64,000 bases of DNA from Escherichia coli (GTDB lineage Bacteria > Pseudomonadota > Gammaproteobacteria > Enterobacterales > Enterobacteriaceae): NCBI RefSeq assembly GCF_041886205.1, contig NZ_CP169029.1. One strand, written 5' to 3'. The notes under the pieces are model-generated. The model saw only the letters and a program-made list of their open reading frames with translations, did not search any database and was not told the DNA's origin. Numbering within the stretch: the stretch's first letter is position 1; every line of letters begins with the position of its first letter. Of this stretch, positions 652 to 44,533 are shown one piece after another. The translations under genes and the position numbers were made by a program.

Positions 652-2198
652 TGTCAGAACCACGTCTGGGTAATCTGATTACCGTTTTACTACCTGCGCG
701 TAGTTACAAGATCAACTGCGCTTTGACCACTGAAAAACTGATGCCTGGAATTGAACAGTTTGCATGTCGCTTGCTGCTGATTTTTGATCAACTCTATCCC
801 AGCGAGTTACAGAATTACTTTGGTCTAACTGATCGTGAGCGAGAGGTATTGCTTGATGGGTTGCTGGCTAACAGACTGATCAACATTAATCCTGATGGGC
901 ATATTGAGGCTAGCTCATTCCTACGTAAGCATGCAGCTAATAATGGTGGGAAGCCAAGTTTAGTTAAATATCAAGAATGTACGGAGGAAGTTGCATTCGA
1001 TCTACTAACTCTTTCGATATGTAAACCGCAACCAAATCGTCGTTTTACTTCTGGACTGCCAGAGCTATTGCCGCGGCATCAGATCGGGGGAGATGCTGCT
1101 GCGGTAACAGAGGCTTTTAGTTCCCAGTTTAGGCACCATCTTTTGCTCAGCCGCAACAGCGAGTATGAGCGTCAACGGACTAAATTATATAAGATAATGG
1201 GCTGTAGTTCGCATGAGATGGTGCAGCTCCCAATAGAGATAGAGGTTAGCTACGGTGTTTCTGCTGGGAGCATTGAGCCGCAGAAATTTACTCGTTCCTA
1301 TGAATATTTAGGTAACACCCGGCTGCCGCTTTCAAACGAGCTGGAAGCTCATATCGCAGATTTTTTGGGAGAACATAAACTAGATGAATTCGGTATCGAC
1401 TGTGAAGATTTCTGTAAACTAGCAAATGATAAAGTGTTGTTACAATTTGCTAATGGTTATAAGTTCAACTATTCCGGCTGGATAGAGGCTCGTGAACAAC
1501 GTAAAACTGGCTACGGTACTTCATTGACTACCGGCATGTTAGGGGCTGTTTATTTGCCGCACAATTCTAAGCTGTTCATTAGTATGTTGCATAATGCATT
1601 ACGTGATTATATAGGTAAAACAGCTCCAAAAGCGCTGTGGTATAGCAGTAAAGTACCACTGTGGGGAGCTAATGGTAGTCAACTTTCGCGTTTTACTCGC
1701 GCTCTAGGCGATATACTTGGCAATTATGCCGATGATAAGATTGCTCGCATTTCGCTTTTACACTCAAGTGCAGATGAAGGTGAAAAACGTCAAGAGCGTA
1801 AGCGGCACTTAGGTCGTTTTCCTACCGGTATTGGCCTTACTTCAGAGGCTAAATTTGATCGTTTGGAGATCCTCTTAATTCCTGATGTGATTGCTTTGGT
1901 GCAATACCACGGTCAACCTAATTCTGATAGTGCATTAACCCTGCCGATTGGTTATATAACTGTTGAGCCAGAGCGTTTAGAATTACTTAAAAAACTAATG
2001 ATTAAGCGAACTGAAGGGGCTGTTGCAACCATTACTTGGTCTGAATCAAAATTTGAAAATTTAGCTTCGCTATTACCTGTTGAGTTTCTGATTAAACTGA
2101 ATAAGAAAAGCGGTGAAGATGTGGATGCTGCAATAAAAAAAATGCAGATCTATAACCGTGCTGAAACCGCACGGGCAATTTTATCGCTACGCAAGTAG
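651..2198 (+). CDS. Hypothetical 515-aa protein, translationally coupled to the upstream helicase
   Basis: ATG at 651 overlaps the helicase stop (TAATG); GGAG 13 nt upstream. Long uninterrupted ORF with no catalytic motif I can recognise. Confidence 0.6.
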   Translation: MSEPRLGNLITVLLPARSYKINCALTTEKLMPGIEQFACRLLLIFDQLYPSELQNYFGLTDREREVLLDGLLANRLININPDGHIEASSFLRKHAANNGGKPSLVKYQECTEEVAFDLLTLSICKPQPNRRFTSGLPELLPRHQIGGDAAAVTEAFSSQFRHHLLLSRNSEYERQRTKLYKIMGCSSHEMVQLPIEIEVSYGVSAGSIEPQKFTRSYEYLGNTRLPLSNELEAHIADFLGEHKLDEFGIDCEDFCKLANDKVLLQFANGYKFNYSGWIEAREQRKTGYGTSLTTGMLGAVYLPHNSKLFISMLHNALRDYIGKTAPKALWYSSKVPLWGANGSQLSRFTRALGDILGNYADDKIARISLLHSSADEGEKRQERKRHLGRFPTGIGLTSEAKFDRLEILLIPDVIALVQYHGQPNSDSALTLPIGYITVEPERLELLKKLMIKRTEGAVATITWSESKFENLASLLPVEFLIKLNKKSGEDVDAAIKKMQIYNRAETARAILSLRK

Positions 2199-2412
2199 CA
2201 TTTATATTGCAACGAATAAATTTTTCTAGGTTGCTATGAACTAGCTAAAGGGCAACAAATAGATAAACGGCGTTATTCATGTCAAATGAGATAATGTTAA
2301 ATTGATAGGGATTTATACCCCGCCGGCCATTTTGAATGGTCGGAGTTGTTATAAACGTTAAACCGCCCCGGAAATCCTGGAGACTAAACTCCCTGAGAAA
2401 GAGGTAAACAGG

Positions 2413-2739
2413 ATGACTAAAAATACACGTTTTTCCCCCGAAGTCCGTCAACGGGCAGTTCGTATGGTTCTGGAAAGTCAGGGCGAATATGACTCACAAT
2501 GGACAGCAATTTGTTCTATTGCCCCTAAGATTGGCTGTACACCGGAGACTCTGCACGTCTGGGTACTCCAGCATGAGCAGGATATTGGGGGCGGTGATGG
2601 TGGTTTCACCACCACTGAACGTCAGCGTCTGAAAGAGCTGGAACGTGAAAATCGTGAACTGAGCCGCAGTAACGATATCCTTCGCCAGGCTTCCACTTAT
2701 TTTGCGAAGGCGGAGTTCGACCGCCCCTGGAAAAAATAA
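2413..2739 (+). CDS. IS3-family transposase OrfA (IS629 OrfA-like, 108 aa)
   Basis: Translation MTKNTRFSPEVRQRAVRMVLESQGEYDSQW...LKELERENRELSRSNDILRQAS matches IS629/IS1203 OrfA as I recall it. Confidence 0.75.
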   Translation: MTKNTRFSPEVRQRAVRMVLESQGEYDSQWTAICSIAPKIGCTPETLHVWVLQHEQDIGGGDGGFTTTERQRLKELERENRELSRSNDILRQASTYFAKAEFDRPWKK

Positions 2740-3900: not shown

Positions 3901-4227
3901 CTGGGAGCTTATAGATTGTGTGCAAAACTTTTGATAGCAGGAGGTTACAACAGTATTGATGAAAAAGATCATTCAAATCGATTTATATATTTTGTTAATG
4001 TTATCTGTTTTCAATCTAATAACCACGAATATAGCTAATTATAGGATGATTACTAGTTTTGCTACCCTATCAACCAAACGTTCACCGGACATTAGAAAAC
4101 ATGGAAATTTCTTGTTTTTAAATGCTTTTTACACCAATAGAAAAATTTACATTCCAAAATCATTAGTCTTTGCGTAATCAAAAGATGTAATGGTTTTTTT
4201 CCTTACTACTTCTAGATAATCCGCCCA

Positions 4228-5390: not shown

Positions 5391-5435
5391 ACCCTGCAGT
5401 AATATTATACTGCAGGGTTGTCTGTTATCTGCTTT
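5391..5435 (+). terminator. Putative rho-independent terminator after the outer-membrane protein gene
   Basis: Perfect 11-bp inverted repeat accctgcagta/tactgcagggt followed by a T-rich tract. Confidence 0.4.
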
Positions 5436-5488: not shown

Positions 5489-6988
5489 ATGAGTATCATA
5501 AAACTATTTTTTCCGGACAATACATCCCGAATTTTATTGTTTTTATTCTTTTTTGTTGTTTCTGTCATAACCACAATTGCATGCGGATACACTGAGAAGA
5601 ATACCACCGGGAATGTGTTGCTGCTGTTCTTTCTTCTGCTTCTTGCACACAGAAATACCCTCACATCCATTACAGCGCTGTTATTTCTGTTCTGTTGTGC
5701 ACTGTATGCGCCTGCCGGTATGACGTACGGTAAAATCAACAACAGTTTTATTGTCGCGTTGTTGCAGACCACGGCTGATGAGGCAGCGGAGTTTACCGGG
5801 ATGATTCCTGTTTATCATTTTCTGGTCAGTGCCGCGATTCTGGTATTCATGGTGATTTTCTGGCGAACACACCACCGCGGTCACCGTAACTGGCTGGCAC
5901 TGCTGCTATTCGTATTATGCTCTGTAAACAGCTGGCCGTTGCGGATGGTTAAAGGAACCGTTGTGGGGACAACTGACACATTGCGTGAAATGCAGCGTTA
6001 TAAACAACTGAGTCAGCACGGGGCTGACAGCTGGAAAATCCTGCCGGGTGTACCGTTGTATGACACGATTGTTATTGTTACTGGTGAGAGTGTGCGCAGG
6101 GATTATATGTCGGTATATGGCTATCCCGTGCCAACCACACCGTGGCTGAATACTGCTCCCGGTTTATTTATTGACGGCTATACATCGGCAGCAGCCAGTA
6201 CCGTACCTTCCCTGAGCCGGACACTGATTTATGACTATGAGCAGAACCCTGATTCCGGCAACAACGTGGTGGCGCTGGCAGCAAAATCAGGATACAGCAC
6301 ATGGTGGATATCCAATCAGGGAAAACTGGGAGAGCATGACACACGCATCTCTGTTATTGCTTCTGATGCGGAGCATACCGTTTTCCTCAAGAAAGGCAGC
6401 TTCGCTTCCCGTAAAACGGATGATATGTTGTTGTTACAGGAAACAGAACGTGCGCTGGCGGATACATCCTCTCCGAAGGTGATTTTCCTGCACATGATTG
6501 GCTCTCATCCGAATCCGTGTGACCGACTTAACTCCTGGCCGAATCATTACCTGGAGCAGTATCCCCGAAAGATTGCCTGTTACCTCGCCAGCATCAGTAA
6601 ACTGGATAACTTTCTCGGTCAGCTTGATGGTATCCTTCGCCGGCATTCCCGTCATTTCGCCATGCTTTACTTTTCTGACCATGGACTGTCGGTCAGCGAC
6701 AGCGCTAATCCTGTTCATCATGATGGTCATGTGCAGGGAGGCTACAGCGTTCCCCTGATTATTACCGCCAGTGACATCACGTCTCATCAGTCCGTCAGCA
6801 GAAAAATCAGTGCCCGTCATTTCGCAGGTATTTTTCAGTGGCTGACCGGCATTCGTACTGAAAATATACCGCCATTCAATCCGCTGACAGACGAAGATAA
6901 TGAACCCGTTATGGTTTTTAACGGGGAGAGGAATGTACCGGCAGACAGTCTGAAACCGCAGCCTCTGATTCTTCCGGACAGAAGATAA
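5489..6988 (+). CDS. Sulfatase-family phosphoethanolamine transferase-like inner-membrane protein (EptA/YhbX-like), 499 aa
   Basis: N-terminal multi-span hydrophobic region followed by a soluble domain with sulfatase-like signatures (IVTGESVRRDY, HMIGSHPNPCDRL). Exact start codon uncertain. Confidence 0.65.
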   Translation: MSIIKLFFPDNTSRILLFLFFFVVSVITTIACGYTEKNTTGNVLLLFFLLLLAHRNTLTSITALLFLFCCALYAPAGMTYGKINNSFIVALLQTTADEAAEFTGMIPVYHFLVSAAILVFMVIFWRTHHRGHRNWLALLLFVLCSVNSWPLRMVKGTVVGTTDTLREMQRYKQLSQHGADSWKILPGVPLYDTIVIVTGESVRRDYMSVYGYPVPTTPWLNTAPGLFIDGYTSAAASTVPSLSRTLIYDYEQNPDSGNNVVALAAKSGYSTWWISNQGKLGEHDTRISVIASDAEHTVFLKKGSFASRKTDDMLLLQETERALADTSSPKVIFLHMIGSHPNPCDRLNSWPNHYLEQYPRKIACYLASISKLDNFLGQLDGILRRHSRHFAMLYFSDHGLSVSDSANPVHHDGHVQGGYSVPLIITASDITSHQSVSRKISARHFAGIFQWLTGIRTENIPPFNPLTDEDNEPVMVFNGERNVPADSLKPQPLILPDRR

Positions 6989-7096: not shown

Positions 7097-10000
7097 CTAA
7101 ACCTGACGCCTCTCAAGACTATTATAAATAGCCTCAATCTCACCCTTCAGGTTATCACCGCAATAAACCATTGAGGTATCGTATCGTTCATATCGCGCTT
7201 CCCGTGTCGCACTAAACCAGTTGAACGATCCCACGCACAGCAAACCATCATCACCAATAACAATTTTGCTATGAACACGGTTTACCAGCTTTGTAGCAAT
7301 ACCCAGCGCATTCAGTTTCTCCAGCGCCGCTTTAAAGTTTTGCTGCTTCTCTTTTCGCTTCTCAAAATCATTATGTTCAGTGTTGTAGCTTCTGTCAGTG
7401 ACTATCGTGACGTTAATTCCACGTGAACACGCCGCAATCATGGAATCAAGAAAACCTGTTTGCTCCAGCCTTTGCCAGGTCAGCCATGGAGAAACTATCG
7501 TGATGTGTTTACTGGTATTTTCAAATGTCTGATTCAGGAAATTATCATGTTGCTCCACACCATGAAGTGTGTAGATTTTGGTCCCGGAGGTTTTTAAATC
7601 CTTACGCTCTTTATAATCAAAAGAGAGCGCATTCTTCTCTGACTCAAAGAGGTATTTTGCCAGTAATCCCCGTGGAGATGAGGCTGGCTGGACCTCAAAC
7701 AGGTCCATATCGCCGAAGACCAGAAAACTGTCCTTCGCACGGGAGACTGCAACATTCAGCATGCTGTTATCGCTATCAATAAACCCGCCGTCTTCATGTT
7801 TTGAATAGACTGGCGAGAATATCACAATCGCTCTTTCCGCTCCCTGAAGAGAGTGCACGGTGCCCACTGTGAGCGACTTTTCATTCGAGCCTGTACTGAT
7901 ACCTTGTTTGCCCAGCGCCTGTTTGATAGTGGATACCTGAGCGCTAAAAGGCGTCACGATACCGACAACTTCATGAAGCGATTTACCGTAATGCGCTTCA
8001 ATATTTTGTTGGTTCTCTGCCAACCAGACCGCTATCGTTTCAGCCTCAAGCAAATTATATCGACTTCCACTACTTGCCAGCTCTCCTTTACCATCAATAT
8101 GGAGATACCCCATTGCGGGCATTAAATTGCTCTCTTCACGCCCTCTTTTAGGCAACAACTTACCGTGATAGCAGAGCGTATTACAGTATCCAATAATATT
8201 GTCGTAGCACCGGCGGTGTTCATATAGGGACATACCACGAGCCAGTTCGGGATCATATTGATAGCGCGAAGCAAACTGCGCTATTTTCATAACGCTGCCA
8301 GATGCGGCACTTTTACCAAGGTCTGCGATTGCCGTATATTTCTCGGTAATCTCTTCTTGCGTACTGCCAGACAGAATTTTTTCCGCCAGCATGTTACCGA
8401 CATCAATCGCAGGAGCAATACTCCATATTGGCGGGAGCTGCTCCGTATCGCCAATCACTAATGCCTTCTTAGCTAATGCAAACGAGGCAGCAGCCACTTC
8501 AGGAAGCACCTGCCCGGCTTCATCGACAATGAGTAAATCGGCAAAATCATACAAATAACTTTTCTCGAATTTACGCTGTCCTTTGTGCTCACTTATCTGC
8601 ATATTGCCGGGCAGCATATAGCATGTCATCACCACACATGGAGTGAGTTTCATTCGACGTTGCCAACGGGCAGTTACCCCTTTAGCGCCTTTTTTCTTCT
8701 TCTCTTCCTGCAGATCATCAATGCTGGCCATATCCATCAGCCAACGACCTTCCCAGTAGTGAGTCGTCAGTAAAAATGCAGGGAAGCGAATCTGCGTATC
8801 AGCCAGTTCATCGGCCTGTGAGAAGCTCAGTTCCTCGTCGCCCTCATACCCTAAATTAAGAGCCAGTCTCTGCCACTCCTGAACCGCCTGCTGTTCTTTA
8901 AGAATGATTTCATGGGCGGAATCAATCTGCTGCCGGTATGTTGTTTGCTCGCGCTCAGCGGAATTGAGCAGCCCATCAATATTACGTTCGATAGTTTCAG
9001 GATCAGACCACTGATTTCCTGCAATCAGCGCACCTAATTTATCTTCGAGAAACAGCTGTATTTGGTACTGTCGCTTACTGCGAACCACCGGGAGCCAGGA
9101 AAATAATGAATAGATCAGTGATTCACCGGCGCGATATTTTTTCCATTCCGTTTTAGCACTTTTCAGTAGAGTGATTTTTTGTTCTTGTCCGGAAAGTAAT
9201 TTATTTAAATTATCGAGATATTGCTCAATGTCGTTAGCAATAAGCTCACGCGCAGCCCGTACCTGGCTTAACGTTTGCCATGTTGCGTTCAGTCTTATCA
9301 GTTGCTCGGATTTTGCTGCCAACTGACCATGCAGGAGTTCAATGACCTTTTCAGGGGATGAACAATCTTTTTCAGGAAAGGCTGCCTTAGCCTTCTCCAG
9401 ATAAAACAGCAGTGCATCCTCTACATACTCTTTTGACTCAACCTGGTTGAAGAAATCTTCAGTTTGATATTTTTTGGCTGCCTCAGCTTTACGAGTGCTT
9501 GAGGGAAAATAAGCGCCGAAGCTTTTCAGCTCAGGTAACCATCGTCCGGCCATTGCACCAGTGCCCTGTGAAAAATCTTTCCCGAACGCTTCGATAATGT
9601 TCGTTACAGCCTGGTTGTTCGTTGAAGTCGCGATAATTACCGGAGGCTCAGATTTTTCGAGAGCCGCTCTGGCCCACTGCGTGGCGATGATAGAAAGCAC
9701 CAGCGTGGTTTTTCCGGTTCCCGGAGGTCCATTAACAGCAAGGATATCGCCATGTCTTGCATCCAGAAAATGGCTTAAGGCATCGCGCTGAGCCTTTGCC
9801 AGCGGAAACTTATCTCCGGAGTGTCCAAGCCTGTCGCTGAATTTTGCGCCTGGGGCCAGCAAAGACTCTGCAGCATGAACCTCTCGCGAGGCGAAGCGAT
9901 TGAAGAGCGGCACAACCTTCTTGCAAACAAGCAGGTGATCATAAAGAGAAAGGATATGGAAACAGGCACCGCCAGATTGCGCCGTTTTAACAATATAACC

Positions 10001-10612
10001 GTGCTCAGCGAGTTCATATTGCTCAGGATTTTTAATCCAGTCGCCGGCAACGTTCTTCAGCAGCCTCTCTGAATCATCCAGATATTGACGCCACTCCTGC
10101 TGCAAGGCTGCATATCGTGCTTCCCGTTCTTCATCCGTTTCGGCAGTCTTATCAATGCCGTCATCAAAGTTGATAGAGAACGAGGTATGGATTGTCTTGT
10201 ATTTGTCATACTGCCCAATCTCACCAATCGAAAATGCTCCTTTTGGCAAAGGTTCAAGCAGGTCTCTGGGAATGGAGGTCGCTGGCGTCGGATATAAAAA
10301 ACCCTCACGGCTTAGCAAGGCTGGCGTCACTATCGGGGTAACAATATCAGGCGCGCCTGCGGAACGGTCCTTACCATGCTGCAGTAACCGGAAATAAACT
10401 TTTGGGCGCAAGATGACATCGACCGTTTCGACATCGTCTTTTTCTCCCTTAAAAAATTTACTGACAATCGCTTCGTCAAGACGTCCCGCCGCTATCCCAT
10501 GCCAGTGAGTGAAATTTTTGGCGTCTTTCCGTTCAAAACTGCCCTTTCCTGACTCAGCATCCGCAAGCGAGTTGCGCCAGTATGAGGTAAACCCTAAAGC
10601 ATTTTCATCCAT
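7097..10612 (-). CDS. SF1 helicase (Upf1/DNA2-like) fused to a C-terminal PLD-family (HKD) nuclease domain, 1171 aa; candidate single-gene antiphage defense protein
   Basis: Walker [15 protein letters not shown]; Walker B/motif [11 protein letters not shown]; [11 protein letters not shown]; C-terminal helicase motifs [14 protein letters not shown] and [16 protein letters not shown]; C-terminal [19 protein letters not shown] is an exact HxK(x)4D(x)6GSxN phospholipase-D motif. ATG at 10612..10610 with AGGA upstream. Confidence 0.75.
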
Positions 10613-10665
10613 TACCAGTCCTGTGACTCAATGAAATCCATTGATTTATCGAATATAAAACCACC

Positions 10666-10688
10666 ATATGGACAACTATTGTCCATAT
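10666..10688. promoter_or_regulatory. Perfect 10-bp inverted repeat (atatggacaa-cta-ttgtccatat) 54-76 bp upstream of the helicase-PLD start; candidate operator
   Basis: Palindrome read directly from the sequence, located in the upstream region of the minus-strand gene starting at 10612. Confidence 0.3.
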
Positions 10689-11009
10689 TGAAAAAATTGG
10701 ATGCAATGTTTTGTTTATAATTCGATATCAAATGTACTGGTTGTACAAGGTTCAGAACACAAGCACATTCAACAGTACGTCAGGACTATTGATTTCATAA
10801 CAGTGAATACATTTTTTACCGTTTATAATGACTGCCTGTGTTGGACAAGGATACCAGAACAGCCGAAAACACCGGGGGTTATTACCTGCTCTCATGGAAA
10901 CCAGATATTCCTGGTGCTAATCACAGTCATAAATAGCCTGAAGAACATGACGAAGGGACTTTAATGGACGCCGGAGTAACTTGCCAGAACATCAATCTTC
11001 GTCATCATT

Positions 11010-11060
11010 TACAAAGAAAAATAATCAGTTAAAGCAGTCCGGGCTGATTGCCCGGACTGC
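11010..11060 (-). terminator. Putative rho-independent terminator downstream of the integrase
   Basis: Perfect inverted repeat gcagtccggg/cccggactgc immediately after the integrase stop, followed on the minus strand by a T-rich tract. Confidence 0.45.
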
Positions 11061-11063
11061 TTA

Positions 11064-12326
11064 CTATTTTAATGGATTGTTAATTTTTGCATATTCAAAC
11101 GGACTGATACCCTTCTCCCGGTTCGCATCCAGAAAATCGGCCCACCATTGCAACATCAGTCGCCGTTCTTCCAGATGTTCTGCTTTATGGATATACGCAG
11201 CACGTACACCATTACGCTCCTGATGGCTCATCTGACGTTCCACAGCATCGCGGGACCACAAACCTGATTCAATCAATGCACTGCACGCCATCGCCCGGAA
11301 TCCATGGCCACAGACATCCTGGGTTGTGTCATACCCCATCACCCTCAGGGCTTTATTTACAGTATTTTCACTGATTGGTTTACGCGGGTCATGTGCTCCC
11401 GTAAAGATCAGACCATTTTCACCAGCCCATGTCTGTAGTTCTGCCAGTATGGCTACAGCCTGTTTGCTGAGTGGCACAAGATGTGGTGTTCGCATCTTGG
11501 AGCCCCGGTGTGAGAATTTTACGCCAGGCAGAGGTTCGCGTTCGGCTGGAATAGTCCACATGGCATTGTCAATATCAATTTCAGACCAGCGGGCGTATCT
11601 GAGTTCACTGGAACGAATAAAAACCAGTAAATTCAGCATAACTGCCAGTCGGGTGACAGGCTGGCCTTTATAACCGTCAATACGCGACAGAAGTTCAGGC
11701 AGGCGTGAAAGATCCAGTGCAGGGCGATGCTGGCGTTTTACCGTGGTCAATGCACCAGCCATATCCAGAGCCGGGTTATATCTGATGATGCCAGACTGTA
11801 CGGCATAACGCATTACAGCAGATATTCTTTGCTGCAGACGACTGGCGATTTCATAAATTTGTTTAGCTTCTGCAGCACGAACAGGGATAAGCAGGTCCGG
11901 GGTACTGAGTGTTGTGATATCCCGGTTGCCGATAAAGGGGAAAACGTGTGTCTCGAGGCTTTTGAGTACTTTATCGCTGTGTGATTGTGCCCATTGTTTA
12001 TTACTGGCATGCCAGCGTCGTGCAATATGTTCAAAAGAGAGTTGTAAATCAGGGACTACTTTTTTAGCTCTTTTCAGTTCGCAAGGGTCAATCCCCTCCG
12101 AAATCAGTTTTCGGGCCTCATCCCGTTTTGTACGAGCTTCGGAGAGAGAAACTTCTGGATACACACCAAGTGCCAGAGTCTTCTCCTTACCCAGAATACG
12201 ATAACGGAGACGCCAGTAACGGGAACCATTAGGATGAACCAGTAGGAACATGCCAGCCCCGTCAGTGAGTTTATAAGCCTTGTCAGTGGGCTTTGCAGCC
12301 CGGATTTTTGCGTCAGTCAGTGCCAT
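11064..12326 (-). CDS. P4-type phage integrase (tyrosine recombinase), island integrase next to tRNA-Phe
   Basis: Translation from the internal Met: MALTDAKIRAAKPTDKAYKLTDGAGMFLLVHPNGSRYWRLRYR... (typical P4-family N-terminus); C-terminal catalytic region with HGFRAMA...YIHKAEHLEERR. The ORF-track start at 12389 is an upstream extension. Confidence 0.85.
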   Translation of the reverse strand: MALTDAKIRAAKPTDKAYKLTDGAGMFLLVHPNGSRYWRLRYRILGKEKTLALGVYPEVSLSEARTKRDEARKLISEGIDPCELKRAKKVVPDLQLSFEHIARRWHASNKQWAQSHSDKVLKSLETHVFPFIGNRDITTLSTPDLLIPVRAAEAKQIYEIASRLQQRISAVMRYAVQSGIIRYNPALDMAGALTTVKRQHRPALDLSRLPELLSRIDGYKGQPVTRLAVMLNLLVFIRSSELRYARWSEIDIDNAMWTIPAEREPLPGVKFSHRGSKMRTPHLVPLSKQAVAILAELQTWAGENGLIFTGAHDPRKPISENTVNKALRVMGYDTTQDVCGHGFRAMACSALIESGLWSRDAVERQMSHQERNGVRAAYIHKAEHLEERRLMLQWWADFLDANREKGISPFEYAKINNPLK

Positions 12327-12523: not shown

Positions 12524-12599
12524 TGGTGCCCGGACTCGGAATCGAACCAAGGACACGGGGATTTTCAATCCCCTGCTCTACCGACTGAGCTATCCGGGC
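12524..12599 (-). tRNA. pheV: tRNA-Phe (pheV locus by synteny with yqgA-speC)
   Basis: Reverse complement reads GCCCGGATAGCTCAGTCGGTAGAGCAGGGGATTGAAAATCCCCGTGTCCTTGGTTCGATTCCGAGTCCGGGCACCA, the E. coli tRNA-Phe sequence including CCA. Confidence 0.95.
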
Positions 12600-12704
12600 A
12601 ACGGGGCGCATTAAACCTGATTCGCCTCGTCTCGTCAATCAAATTTCTTCAATTTACTGCAGACTGCACAATCTATCATCACTTTGCCGCTATTGCACGC
12701 ATTG

Positions 12705-44266: not shown

Positions 44267-44533
44267 ATTGCCTTGATATGTCCGTTTGCGGACAGGCAAT
44301 AGGTAAATAGTGATGTGTATCGCAAATATTTATATGAAATAAATATTAACTATGTAATGCGTATCACAATATGCATATTGACATTTATTTTTATATCCAT
44401 AAATAACTGTTATTTATGGAATTAATAATTCATTGTTTTTAAAGCATCGATTTCCTCGCTGGATTGCTTTCATTAAACCGCACGAGTATTTTATTTTTAC
44501 CGCCGGACAGTACCCTAAAAATAAGGATAATTT

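Follow-up and report, generated by a model that had tools for sequence, protein, structure and literature searches.

The mkoC locus and its upstream palindrome

The stretch of Escherichia coli chromosomal DNA analysed here (the window, 64 kb) includes an island that runs from pheU toward lower coordinates, with an integrase gene, an intergenic region and mkoC in this order (Table 1). The region around the palindrome described below is 100% identical to that of E. coli strain ZYB39. The mkoC product matches the PADLOC MkoC model PDLC03924 with residues 1-1169 over profile positions 1-1135 of 1136 (E=0, 1684 bits). It contains the Pfam domains AAA_11, AAA_12 and PLDc_2, in agreement with the helicase-PLD gene that an earlier sequence-only reading had placed downstream of the palindrome, and its sequence relatives in the PDB are Upf1, IGHMBP2 and Sen1. 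The end-to-end profile match, together with a Upf1-like SF1 helicase core and a C-terminal PLD domain, thus identifies the gene, on sequence grounds, as full-length MkoC, a single-protein Mokosh type II system with a putative anti-phage role. A defence role of the Mokosh family was reportedly described by Millman et al. in 2022.

A perfect 10-bp inverted repeat with a 3-nt spacer, ATATGGACAA-CTA-TTGTCCATAT on the plus strand, is located at 54-76 bp upstream of the mkoC ATG (10612..10610, minus strand). Its sequence and its distance to the start codon agree exactly with the sequence-only reading. A count of perfect inverted repeats (arms of 10 bp or longer, loops of 0-10 nt) gave 11 for the window and an average of 0.65 for 40 first-order Markov shuffles of it, about a 17-fold excess; those other than the palindrome are mostly G+C-rich terminator hairpins. 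The core TGGACAA-N3-TTGTCCA is found in one copy, where 0.21 matches with up to two mismatches are expected. From the shuffles and this expectation, the symmetry is therefore real and above chance. The half-site alone is not enriched in the window (five matches with at most one mismatch, 4.07 expected), and the half-site and core scans detected no second copy of the site in the 64 kb.

Table 1. Features of the mkoC upstream region and of the adjoining end of the pheU island, in window coordinates.
Feature	Position	Strand	Basis or remark
mkoC, Mokosh type II, 1171 aa, Upf1-like SF1 helicase with C-terminal PLD nuclease	7097..10612	-	PADLOC, Pfam, PDB relatives
Intergenic region between mkoC and integrase, 451 bp, A+T-rich (38% G+C)	10613..11063		
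Predicted 5' UTR, about 57 nt	10613..10668	-	Conserved blocks TTTATAT, AAATCAAT, AGTCAC.GGA
Shine-Dalgarno AGGA	10622..10619	-	Six bases before mkoC ATG
Perfect inverted repeat	10666..10688	none	Sequence; perfect in at least 131 E. coli genomes and E. albertii (L010)
ATG-proximal arm, TTGTCCATAT on the gene strand	10666..10675	-	Variable arm; would hold discriminator and predicted start
Octamer TGGACAAT	10678..10685	-	Invariant across 12/12 Enterobacterales orthologue lineages (alignments)
Putative -10 hexamer GACAAT	10678..10683	-	Sigma-70 position-weight scan; A at -11 and T at -7 present
Putative -35 hexamer TTGCAT	10701..10706	-	TTG invariant; spacer 17 nt here, 16 nt in other clades
Strong hairpin, 13-bp stem, 9 G-C pairs, -28 kcal/mol	11032..11062	scored as + strand terminator	Directly after integrase stop codon
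P4-type tyrosine integrase of the pheU island	11064..12326	-	Pfam Arm-DNA-bind_3, Phage_int_M, Phage_integrase; RefSeq CDS in strain ZYB39
tRNA-Phe (pheU), island insertion site	12524..12599		Minus strand; adjoins dicD-dsbD-cutA

Outside bacterial chromosomes and plasmids, a search of phage contigs gave one exact match to the palindrome, inside an AbiH coding sequence on an unrelated contig, which we treated as chance. The edge of the palindrome was also considered as a recombination breakpoint, since a pheV island that lacks mkoC becomes homologous to the window at 10688/10689. The breaks in other islands are at 10832 and 10971, so that the breakpoint at the palindrome edge is one event and not a rule.

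Alleles of the palindrome and orthologous upstream regions

Of 5426 complete E. coli genomes, 1011 carry the intergenic region, and four main forms of the palindrome coexist in this species (all given on the plus strand). The perfect 10/10 form of the window is present in at least 131 genomes, identical over 35 nt, and in E. albertii. A 9/10 form, GTATGGACAA-CTA-TTGTCCATAT, has one mismatch and is present in about 265 genomes, with a G at 10666 in all three that were checked. The 8/10 form of the CFT073 type, GTATGGACAG-CTA-TTGTCCATAT, is carried by about 340 genomes, and a 6/10 form, GTATGGATAA-CTA-TTGTCCACGT, by about 141 genomes with leuX-island copies. The perfect form is thus a minority allele in E. 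coli. All polymorphism within the palindrome in this species is confined to its outer edge and the ATG-proximal arm. The mkoC gene is annotated as intact at the inspected loci with 10/10, 9/10 and 6/10 alleles; among three CFT073-type loci, it is intact in one (L023), truncated in CFT073 and frameshifted in O104:H4.

The 6/10 form is found unchanged in Citrobacter and in a Salmonella contig, and these served as outgroups to order the substitutions. Four pair-creating substitutions occurred in the integrase-linked E. coli lineage, and one derived change, a T to C present in about 340 genomes, breaks a pair on the CFT073 branch. By this comparison, the perfect symmetry is recent and arose out of a 6/10 quasi-palindrome. 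Four of the five derived E. coli substitutions raised the symmetry, which is unlikely under pure drift (p about 1e-3 or less by a rough estimate).

Such a history could reflect symmetry without function, arising by drift or by mutation bias, in which template switching at replication "corrects" a quasi-palindrome. Mutation by this route is well established in E. coli; a model of it is said to be due to Ripley, and the Lovett laboratory reportedly studied quasi-palindrome mutation at a thyA hotspot. As at these template-switch hotspots, an imperfect repeat has been perfected by substitutions that restore complementarity, and intermediate alleles persist in the population. The extant stepwise series from 6/10 through 8-9/10 to 10/10, in which the perfect form is a minority, speaks for such a process. 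Unlike at the hotspots, the changes span both arms and several steps, so that a single template switch would be insufficient, and one derived change breaks a pair. Sequence data alone do not separate mutation bias or drift from weak selection, and we regard a purely functionless symmetry as rather improbable. An origin by mutation bias or drift is at the same time compatible with a promoter beneath the palindrome, as it concerns only where the symmetry came from. The natural series of 6/10, 8/10, 9/10 and 10/10 alleles would allow a cheap and direct test of dyad symmetry against expression.

For the comparison beyond E. coli, orthologous loci were taken from one genome per species, from plasmids and from representatives of clusters at 50% identity. 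Together with about 1000 E. coli genomes, 12 Enterobacterales orthologue lineages with 57-97% protein identity were covered. Of the 20 upstream regions that were aligned, 8 were E. coli alleles. The other 12 were species loci (63-97% protein identity) and represented Citrobacter, E. albertii, Enterobacter, Phytobacter, two Tatumella, Erwinia, two further enterobacteria and a second Escherichia clade. Homology of these regions to the window ends about 110-150 bp upstream of the ATG, and at 63-97% identity they are alignable over about 110 nt only, read on the gene strand. The invariant blocks within these 110 nt are a TTG, the octamer TGGACAAT located 16-17 nt beyond it, and short blocks in the leader. 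The octamer takes in the promoter-distal arm of the palindrome over its inner 7 nt, together with the first base of the spacer. The TTG was found at a fixed distance upstream of the octamer in 20 of 22 sequences; it is absent in Arsenophonus, and the Salmonella contig was unchecked. The sequence between the two blocks differs between clades and has a length of 16 or 17 nt.

The ATG-proximal arm, in contrast to this fixed arm, is variable. In the orthologues it reads TTATCCAT, TTAATTAT, TTAATCAT, TTAGCCAT, TTAACCAT and TTTGCCAT, and, on the gene strand, TTATCCATAC, TTAATTATGC, TTAATCATAA, TTAGCCATAA, TTAACCATGA, TTTGCCATGC or TGAATCATAA. In lineages other than that of the window, 4-8 of the 10 positions form Watson-Crick pairs between the arms, against 2.5 expected, and the columns kept in the ATG-proximal arm (T1, T2, Y5, C6, A7, T8) are mostly complementary to the fixed arm. 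The search for the same palindrome upstream of homologues that the sequence-only reading had proposed therefore finds one arm invariant, the other only partly paired with it, and no conserved palindrome.

Over the 10 pairs, 73.6% of the aligned cells are paired, against 71.5% in column-preserving shuffles, 52 of 500 of which reach the observed value. The covariation score is reached by 98 of the 500 shuffles and is not significant. The RNAalifold consensus across orthologues amounts to -1.13 kcal/mol with four pairs and no compensatory change. When the register is slid, pairing falls to 31-50%, a contrast that is inflated since one of the aligned sequences supplied the tested structure. At two outer pairs both bases change between clades, with A-T and T-A in the window and T-A and C-G in two orthologous loci (L011 and L017). 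The residual dyad ATGG..AA-N3-TT..CCAT is inherited and appears to be explained by column conservation rather than by covariation.

Outside Enterobacterales, the motif is absent upstream of orthologues at 40-52% identity (Vibrio, Ruegeria and metagenomic contigs), as expected for a lineage-specific promoter. More generally, no motif was found upstream of orthologues below about 55% identity, so that distant orthologues add no footprint. The plasmid-borne orthologue from Arsenophonus (57% identity) has ATATGGACAA at -25 and not at -73, with no TTG partner at the right distance.

A candidate sigma-70 promoter beneath the palindrome

We performed a position-weight scan for sigma-70 promoters on the 20 aligned sequences; the scan is crude, with hexamer frequencies after the classic promoter compilations. 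The combination TTGCnn-16/17-GACAAT is present in 20/20 sequences, with the -10 box mostly at -71 to -66 from the ATG. It ranks among the top 3 candidates in every sequence and first in 10 of them, and no other promoter candidate is common to all 20. The sequence-only reading had assigned the palindrome to the regulatory DNA of the defence gene, and it does overlap the only promoter-like element kept upstream of all Enterobacterales orthologues.

On balance, and by a modest preponderance, we favor the view that the palindrome overlies the core sigma-70 promoter of mkoC, with its -10 box, discriminator and start site. We infer the promoter identity of the boxes from their sequence. The promoter-distal arm, read on the gene strand, would carry the -10 box GACAAT, and its partner TTGCAT, 17 nt upstream, would serve as the -35 box. 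The ATG-proximal arm would then provide the discriminator and the start-site region, which predicts an mRNA leader of about 57 nt. Placed by the usual distance of 7-9 nt to the -10 box, a plausible start is C 10671, C 10670 or A 10669, within a conserved CAT. A search of one library of papers returned no start-site map for the mkoC locus and no paper on Mokosh regulation.

The conserved arrangement resembles that of ordinary sigma-70 promoters (-35 TTGnnn, 16-17 nt spacer, -10 nAnnnT). Two blocks at fixed spacing, a spacer free in sequence and a variable region downstream constitute a promoter-like footprint, and both boxes and their spacing are conserved in the 20 orthologous sequences. The hexamers lie within the 16-18 nt spacing range, the A at -11 and the T at -7 are invariant, and the element precedes the ATG by 60-95 nt, with a Shine-Dalgarno sequence after it. 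Unlike in ordinary sigma-70 promoters, the match to consensus is limited to 7-8 of 12 positions; the consensus scan, with its threshold of 9 of 12, left the element uncalled on the minus strand. In addition, the whole octamer TGGACAAT is invariant rather than the key positions alone. All 8 bases are kept, even the G at -12 and the C at -10, which depart from consensus, and the TG that precedes the hexamer, a constraint that exceeds the needs of a -10 box and would suit a sequence-specific protein. Since the start site is putative, the consensus match modest and the octamer over-conserved, we keep our confidence in the promoter moderate.

Two other promoter arrangements were considered and rejected. 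A divergent plus-strand promoter through the palindrome (TGGACA-17-AAAAAT) relies on a last T that is specific to the window allele, 5/5 other aligned E. coli alleles having AAAAAG. With TGGACA as a -35 box, or with the TTTATAT or ATCAAT blocks as -10 boxes, the spacing is 15-22 nt or the A at -11 or the T at -7 is missing in most orthologues.

The predicted mkoC promoter would be weak to moderate and, with no regulator linked to the gene, probably constitutive. It would travel with mkoC as a module of about 110-150 bp, in which the ATG-proximal arm is free to drift. The symmetry would largely be a by-product, an ancestral 6/10 quasi-palindrome having been brought by four point substitutions to 8, 9 and then 10 pairs. 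The gene moves among islands (pheU, pheV, leuX) and plasmids with what would be a self-contained control region, which would be of practical use for cloning mkoC "with native promoter". Symmetry that is young and polymorphic over a conserved promoter provides no evidence for dedicated repressor control or for insulation by a terminator.

The invariant octamer also harbors a putative start codon. ATG GAC AAT opens an upstream frame of 24 codons (10686..10612) whose stop overlaps the mkoC start (TAATG), which would couple the translation of the two. In the window and in CFT073-type alleles this frame is uninterrupted and ends in TAATG; in the Arsenophonus copy, ATGGACAA is likewise in frame with TAA-TAA-TG where mkoC starts. 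However, no Shine-Dalgarno sequence precedes it. In the clade at 63-68% identity it has a GTG start and ends within 4-7 codons, which leaves about 55 nt to mkoC; the stop comes 12 nt early in the leuX copies, in Citrobacter and in the Salmonella contig; and in two further loci (L006 and L015) the frame runs past the mkoC start. With stops that differ across clades, neither the length of the frame nor its peptide is conserved, and we consider a coupled upstream frame very unlikely.

On the minus strand, the palindrome is followed by the T-rich run GGTGGTTTTA, from which the sequence-only reading had suggested a weak terminator that insulates mkoC from integrase read-through. The run does follow the stem-loop, as in intrinsic (Rho-independent) terminators, and the consensus scan lists the site as terminator-like on this strand, with 10 pairs of which 3 are G-C and GGTGGTTTTA as the tail. 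The RNA fold has an energy of -11.2 kcal/mol (z = -2.2). Unlike in intrinsic terminators, the stem is A+T-rich and GGTGGTTTTA stands in place of a U tract, the T tract being short and interrupted (tail GGUGGUUUUA). The canonical G+C-rich type is represented nearby by the hairpin at the integrase stop codon (z about -7), which is far stronger, and the palindrome lies 344 bp beyond it. An Rfam scan of 10400..11300 gave no match above threshold; a sub-threshold match to Arrc11 covers this integrase-side hairpin with 22 bits, against a gathering score of 52. The stem of the palindrome is not kept in orthologues, with 4-8 of 10 pairs and no compensation, most orthologues have no integrase upstream, and the site overlaps the conserved promoter boxes. 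The T-rich run is there, but the proposed terminator appears highly improbable.

The operator alternative and the search for a regulator

The sequence-only reading had also interpreted the size and symmetry of the palindrome as the binding site of a dimeric regulator, with the gene repressed or induced rather than constitutive. In this case, a dimeric repressor would bind the putative operator ATGG..AA-N3-TT..CCAT over the -10 box and start site and block RNA polymerase. The site would reach 10/10 perfection in some E. coli, and the Mokosh type II system would be repressed until a signal arrives. A residual dyad is observed in every orthologue, with more pairs than expected and more than in slid registers, and the two outer pairs that change on both sides between clades, the invariance of the octamer beyond the needs of a -10 box and the gain of symmetry in E. 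coli all speak in the same direction. Against these stand the poor conservation of one arm, pairing and covariation that column-preserving shuffles match, the persistence of 10/10, 9/10, 8/10 and 6/10 alleles in hundreds of genomes, and the common derived T to C that breaks a pair. The two half-sites are not both conserved in the orthologous promoters.

Repressors of defence systems of the WYL-domain BrxR/CapW type bind inverted repeats upstream of defence operons. Like their operators, the palindrome is an inverted repeat of about 23 bp over the core promoter of a defence gene. Unlike the BrxR/CapW systems, in which the regulator is encoded beside the operon, no linked regulator gene was found in any of about 12 orthologous mkoC contexts, and one half-site is not conserved at mkoC. 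What lies upstream changes from one orthologue context to the next, with genes for DUF4926 or DUF1493, an integrase, an IS3 transposase, an HNH endonuclease, a fimbrial gene or an HD-domain gene. The 64-kb window likewise holds no further copy of the site.

A small regulator gene, which the sequence-only reading had proposed to look for between 10700 and 11060, is not credible there either, as only ORFs of 87 aa (plus strand) and 47 aa (minus strand) were found, without Pfam match. In one genome, the sequence homologous to 10813..10890 carries the annotation of a C-terminal phosphoethanolamine transferase fragment. This peptide neither resembles the transferase encoded in the window nor matches an NCBIfam model, and its homologues in a set of 5.8 billion proteins are only 33-84 aa long, with inconsistent names ("PsiE, partial", "hypothetical"). 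It is not a regulator and may be a gene remnant. An ORF of strain JNEC-KY176 related to the ORFs in 10700..10964 similarly has only short, inconsistently named homologues.

With no regulator linked to mkoC, the candidates left for a repressor would be a conserved host factor and MkoC itself. We know of no transcription-factor motif that fits the dyad. The motifs of sigma-54, LexA, CRP, RutR, the 434-type ACAA-N6-TTGT and the P2/P4 Ogr/Delta TGT-N12-ACA did not fit in spacing or orientation. Partial matches to the DnaA box (7/9) and the TorR box (8/10 to the tor box) are at chance level given the many motifs tried. Because the residual dyad exceeds the slid-register controls, we retain a small but real probability for the operator reading, well below that of the promoter. 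The factor that may bind a true operator over the -10 box and start site would be a conserved enterobacterial protein, or MkoC through its N-terminal 270 residues, and we hold this putative binding to be unlikely to the same degree. If such an operator exists, single-gene Mokosh type II would be regulated and not constitutive, its control site would travel between islands, and the site would give a first handle on the regulation of a single-gene defence system.

In the clade at 63-68% identity, a second inverted repeat, TGCGA-N6-TCGCA, with a variable centre is conserved 13 nt upstream of GACAAT. The window allele is degenerate at the corresponding columns. CRP-S sites, the Sxy-dependent elements of competence regulons, are defined by a TGCGA core with C at position 6 (PMC1635313). 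Unlike CRP-S sites, which have a class I position (PMC1635313), the repeat is centred near -25.5 of the putative promoter. Regulator-type sites thus do occur at mkoC promoters, which is a further point in favor of an operator, and if an operator at the palindrome were true the CRP-S-like site might represent a second, alternative control input in the sister clade.

Inverted repeats upstream of mkoC and in its predicted leader

An inverted repeat, TGCGA-N6-TCGCA, is conserved upstream of the mkoC orthologues that form the clade with 63-68% protein identity (loci L007, L008, L011, L015, L016, L017 and L018). The repeat has a variable centre and TTATT flanks, and the invariant GACAAT, the putative -10 box, lies 13 nt downstream of it. 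The L015 form reads TGCGA-N6-TCACA, and the window allele is degenerate at the homologous columns (TGCAT-N7-TTTCA). Sxy/TfoX-dependent CRP-S sites are defined by a TGCGA core with C as base 6 (PMC1635313), and this CRP-S-like repeat would tie the phage-defence gene mkoC to the competence regulon. However, the repeat is centred near -25.5 of the putative promoter, which is no class I position.

Two further elements are found in the predicted mkoC leader. The small inverted repeat AAATC-N3-5-GATTT is present in most orthologues at the same columns with a loop of varying length, as in the L008 form GAAATC-AAT-GATTTC. It also comes close to the IHF core WATCAA-N4-TT, and it was absent from the RNAalifold calls. 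A segment of the leader is a 9/10 match to the high-affinity H-NS nucleation motif TCGATAAATT. The intergenic region has a G+C content of 38% versus 45-50% in its surroundings, and H-NS silencing of the mkoC promoter is therefore plausible from base composition.

Coordinates of the sequence features in the window.
Feature	Window position	Strand	Location or source
Inverted repeat AAATC-N3-5-GATTT	10634..10647	minus	predicted mkoC leader
H-NS-like segment TCGATAAATC	10643..10652	minus	mkoC leader
Inverted repeat TGCGA-N6-TCGCA	about 10690..10705 (homologous columns)		~80-95 nt upstream of mkoC ATG; e.g. L017, about 2410..2425
Promoter-like site TGGACA-17-AAAAAT with TG	10692..10697	+	promoter scan
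24-codon reading frame	10612..10686	minus	start codon (ATG GAC AAT ...) within the invariant octamer
Strong hairpin, arms AGTCCGGGC / GCCCGGACT	11032..11062		directly after integrase stop
A+T-rich perfect palindrome TCCATAAATAAC-T-GTTATTTATGGA, 12-bp arms	44396..44420		inverted-repeat census
Perfect 10-bp inverted repeat ACCCTGCAGT-aatattat-ACTGCAGGGT	5391..5418		inverted-repeat census

A short reading frame and a divergent promoter-like site

The 24-codon reading frame that opens in the octamer closes with a TAA overlapping the mkoC start (TAATG). In the Arsenophonus plasmid copy, ATGGACAA is likewise in frame with a TAA-TAA-TG at the mkoC start. The length of the frame is not kept in other orthologues, and the frame is not preceded by a Shine-Dalgarno sequence. 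The octamer motif resembles the start of mkoC itself, which reads ATGGACAGCAAT in the sister clade and ATGGACAAA in Ruegeria.

On the opposite strand, the promoter-like site was rejected as a feature of the window allele only: it hinges on an A at 10696, a position occupied by G in all five of the five other aligned E. coli alleles.

Island boundaries, tRNA-Phe likeness and other palindromes

We compared the window at 10688/10689 with positions 3975..4001 of the pheV island of strain USDA-ARS-USMARC-49610. This island lacks mkoC but shares with the window both the integrase and the 375 bp that follow it. Its homology to the window starts at this edge of the palindrome, where the neighbouring gene belongs to the ArsR family; all that is left of the repeat is AACTAT-GTCC, in degenerate form. 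Islands of this type represent roughly 2% of the matching genomes under spread sampling. Other islands have their breakpoints elsewhere, at 10832 and 10971.

The arms of the hairpin that follows the integrase gene match sequence in the acceptor stem and at the 3' end of the neighbouring tRNA-Phe (12527..12536 and 12588..12601). This likeness could have arisen by chance, both being stems rich in G+C, or it could be a remnant of an attachment site or tRNA fragment.

A single exact match to the palindrome sequence TATGGACAAnnnTTGTCCATA was observed among 2.9 million viral contigs (IMGVR_UViG_3300029237_000155, 860..880). It shares the TAG spacer and lies inside an AbiH abortive-infection coding sequence adjoining a serine recombinase. 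We treat this match as chance, although AbiH is another defence gene. Finally, of the two other perfect palindromes tabulated, the 10-bp repeat sits immediately to the right of an IS100 copy and ~70 bp upstream of the gene for the phosphoethanolamine transferase (5489..6988).
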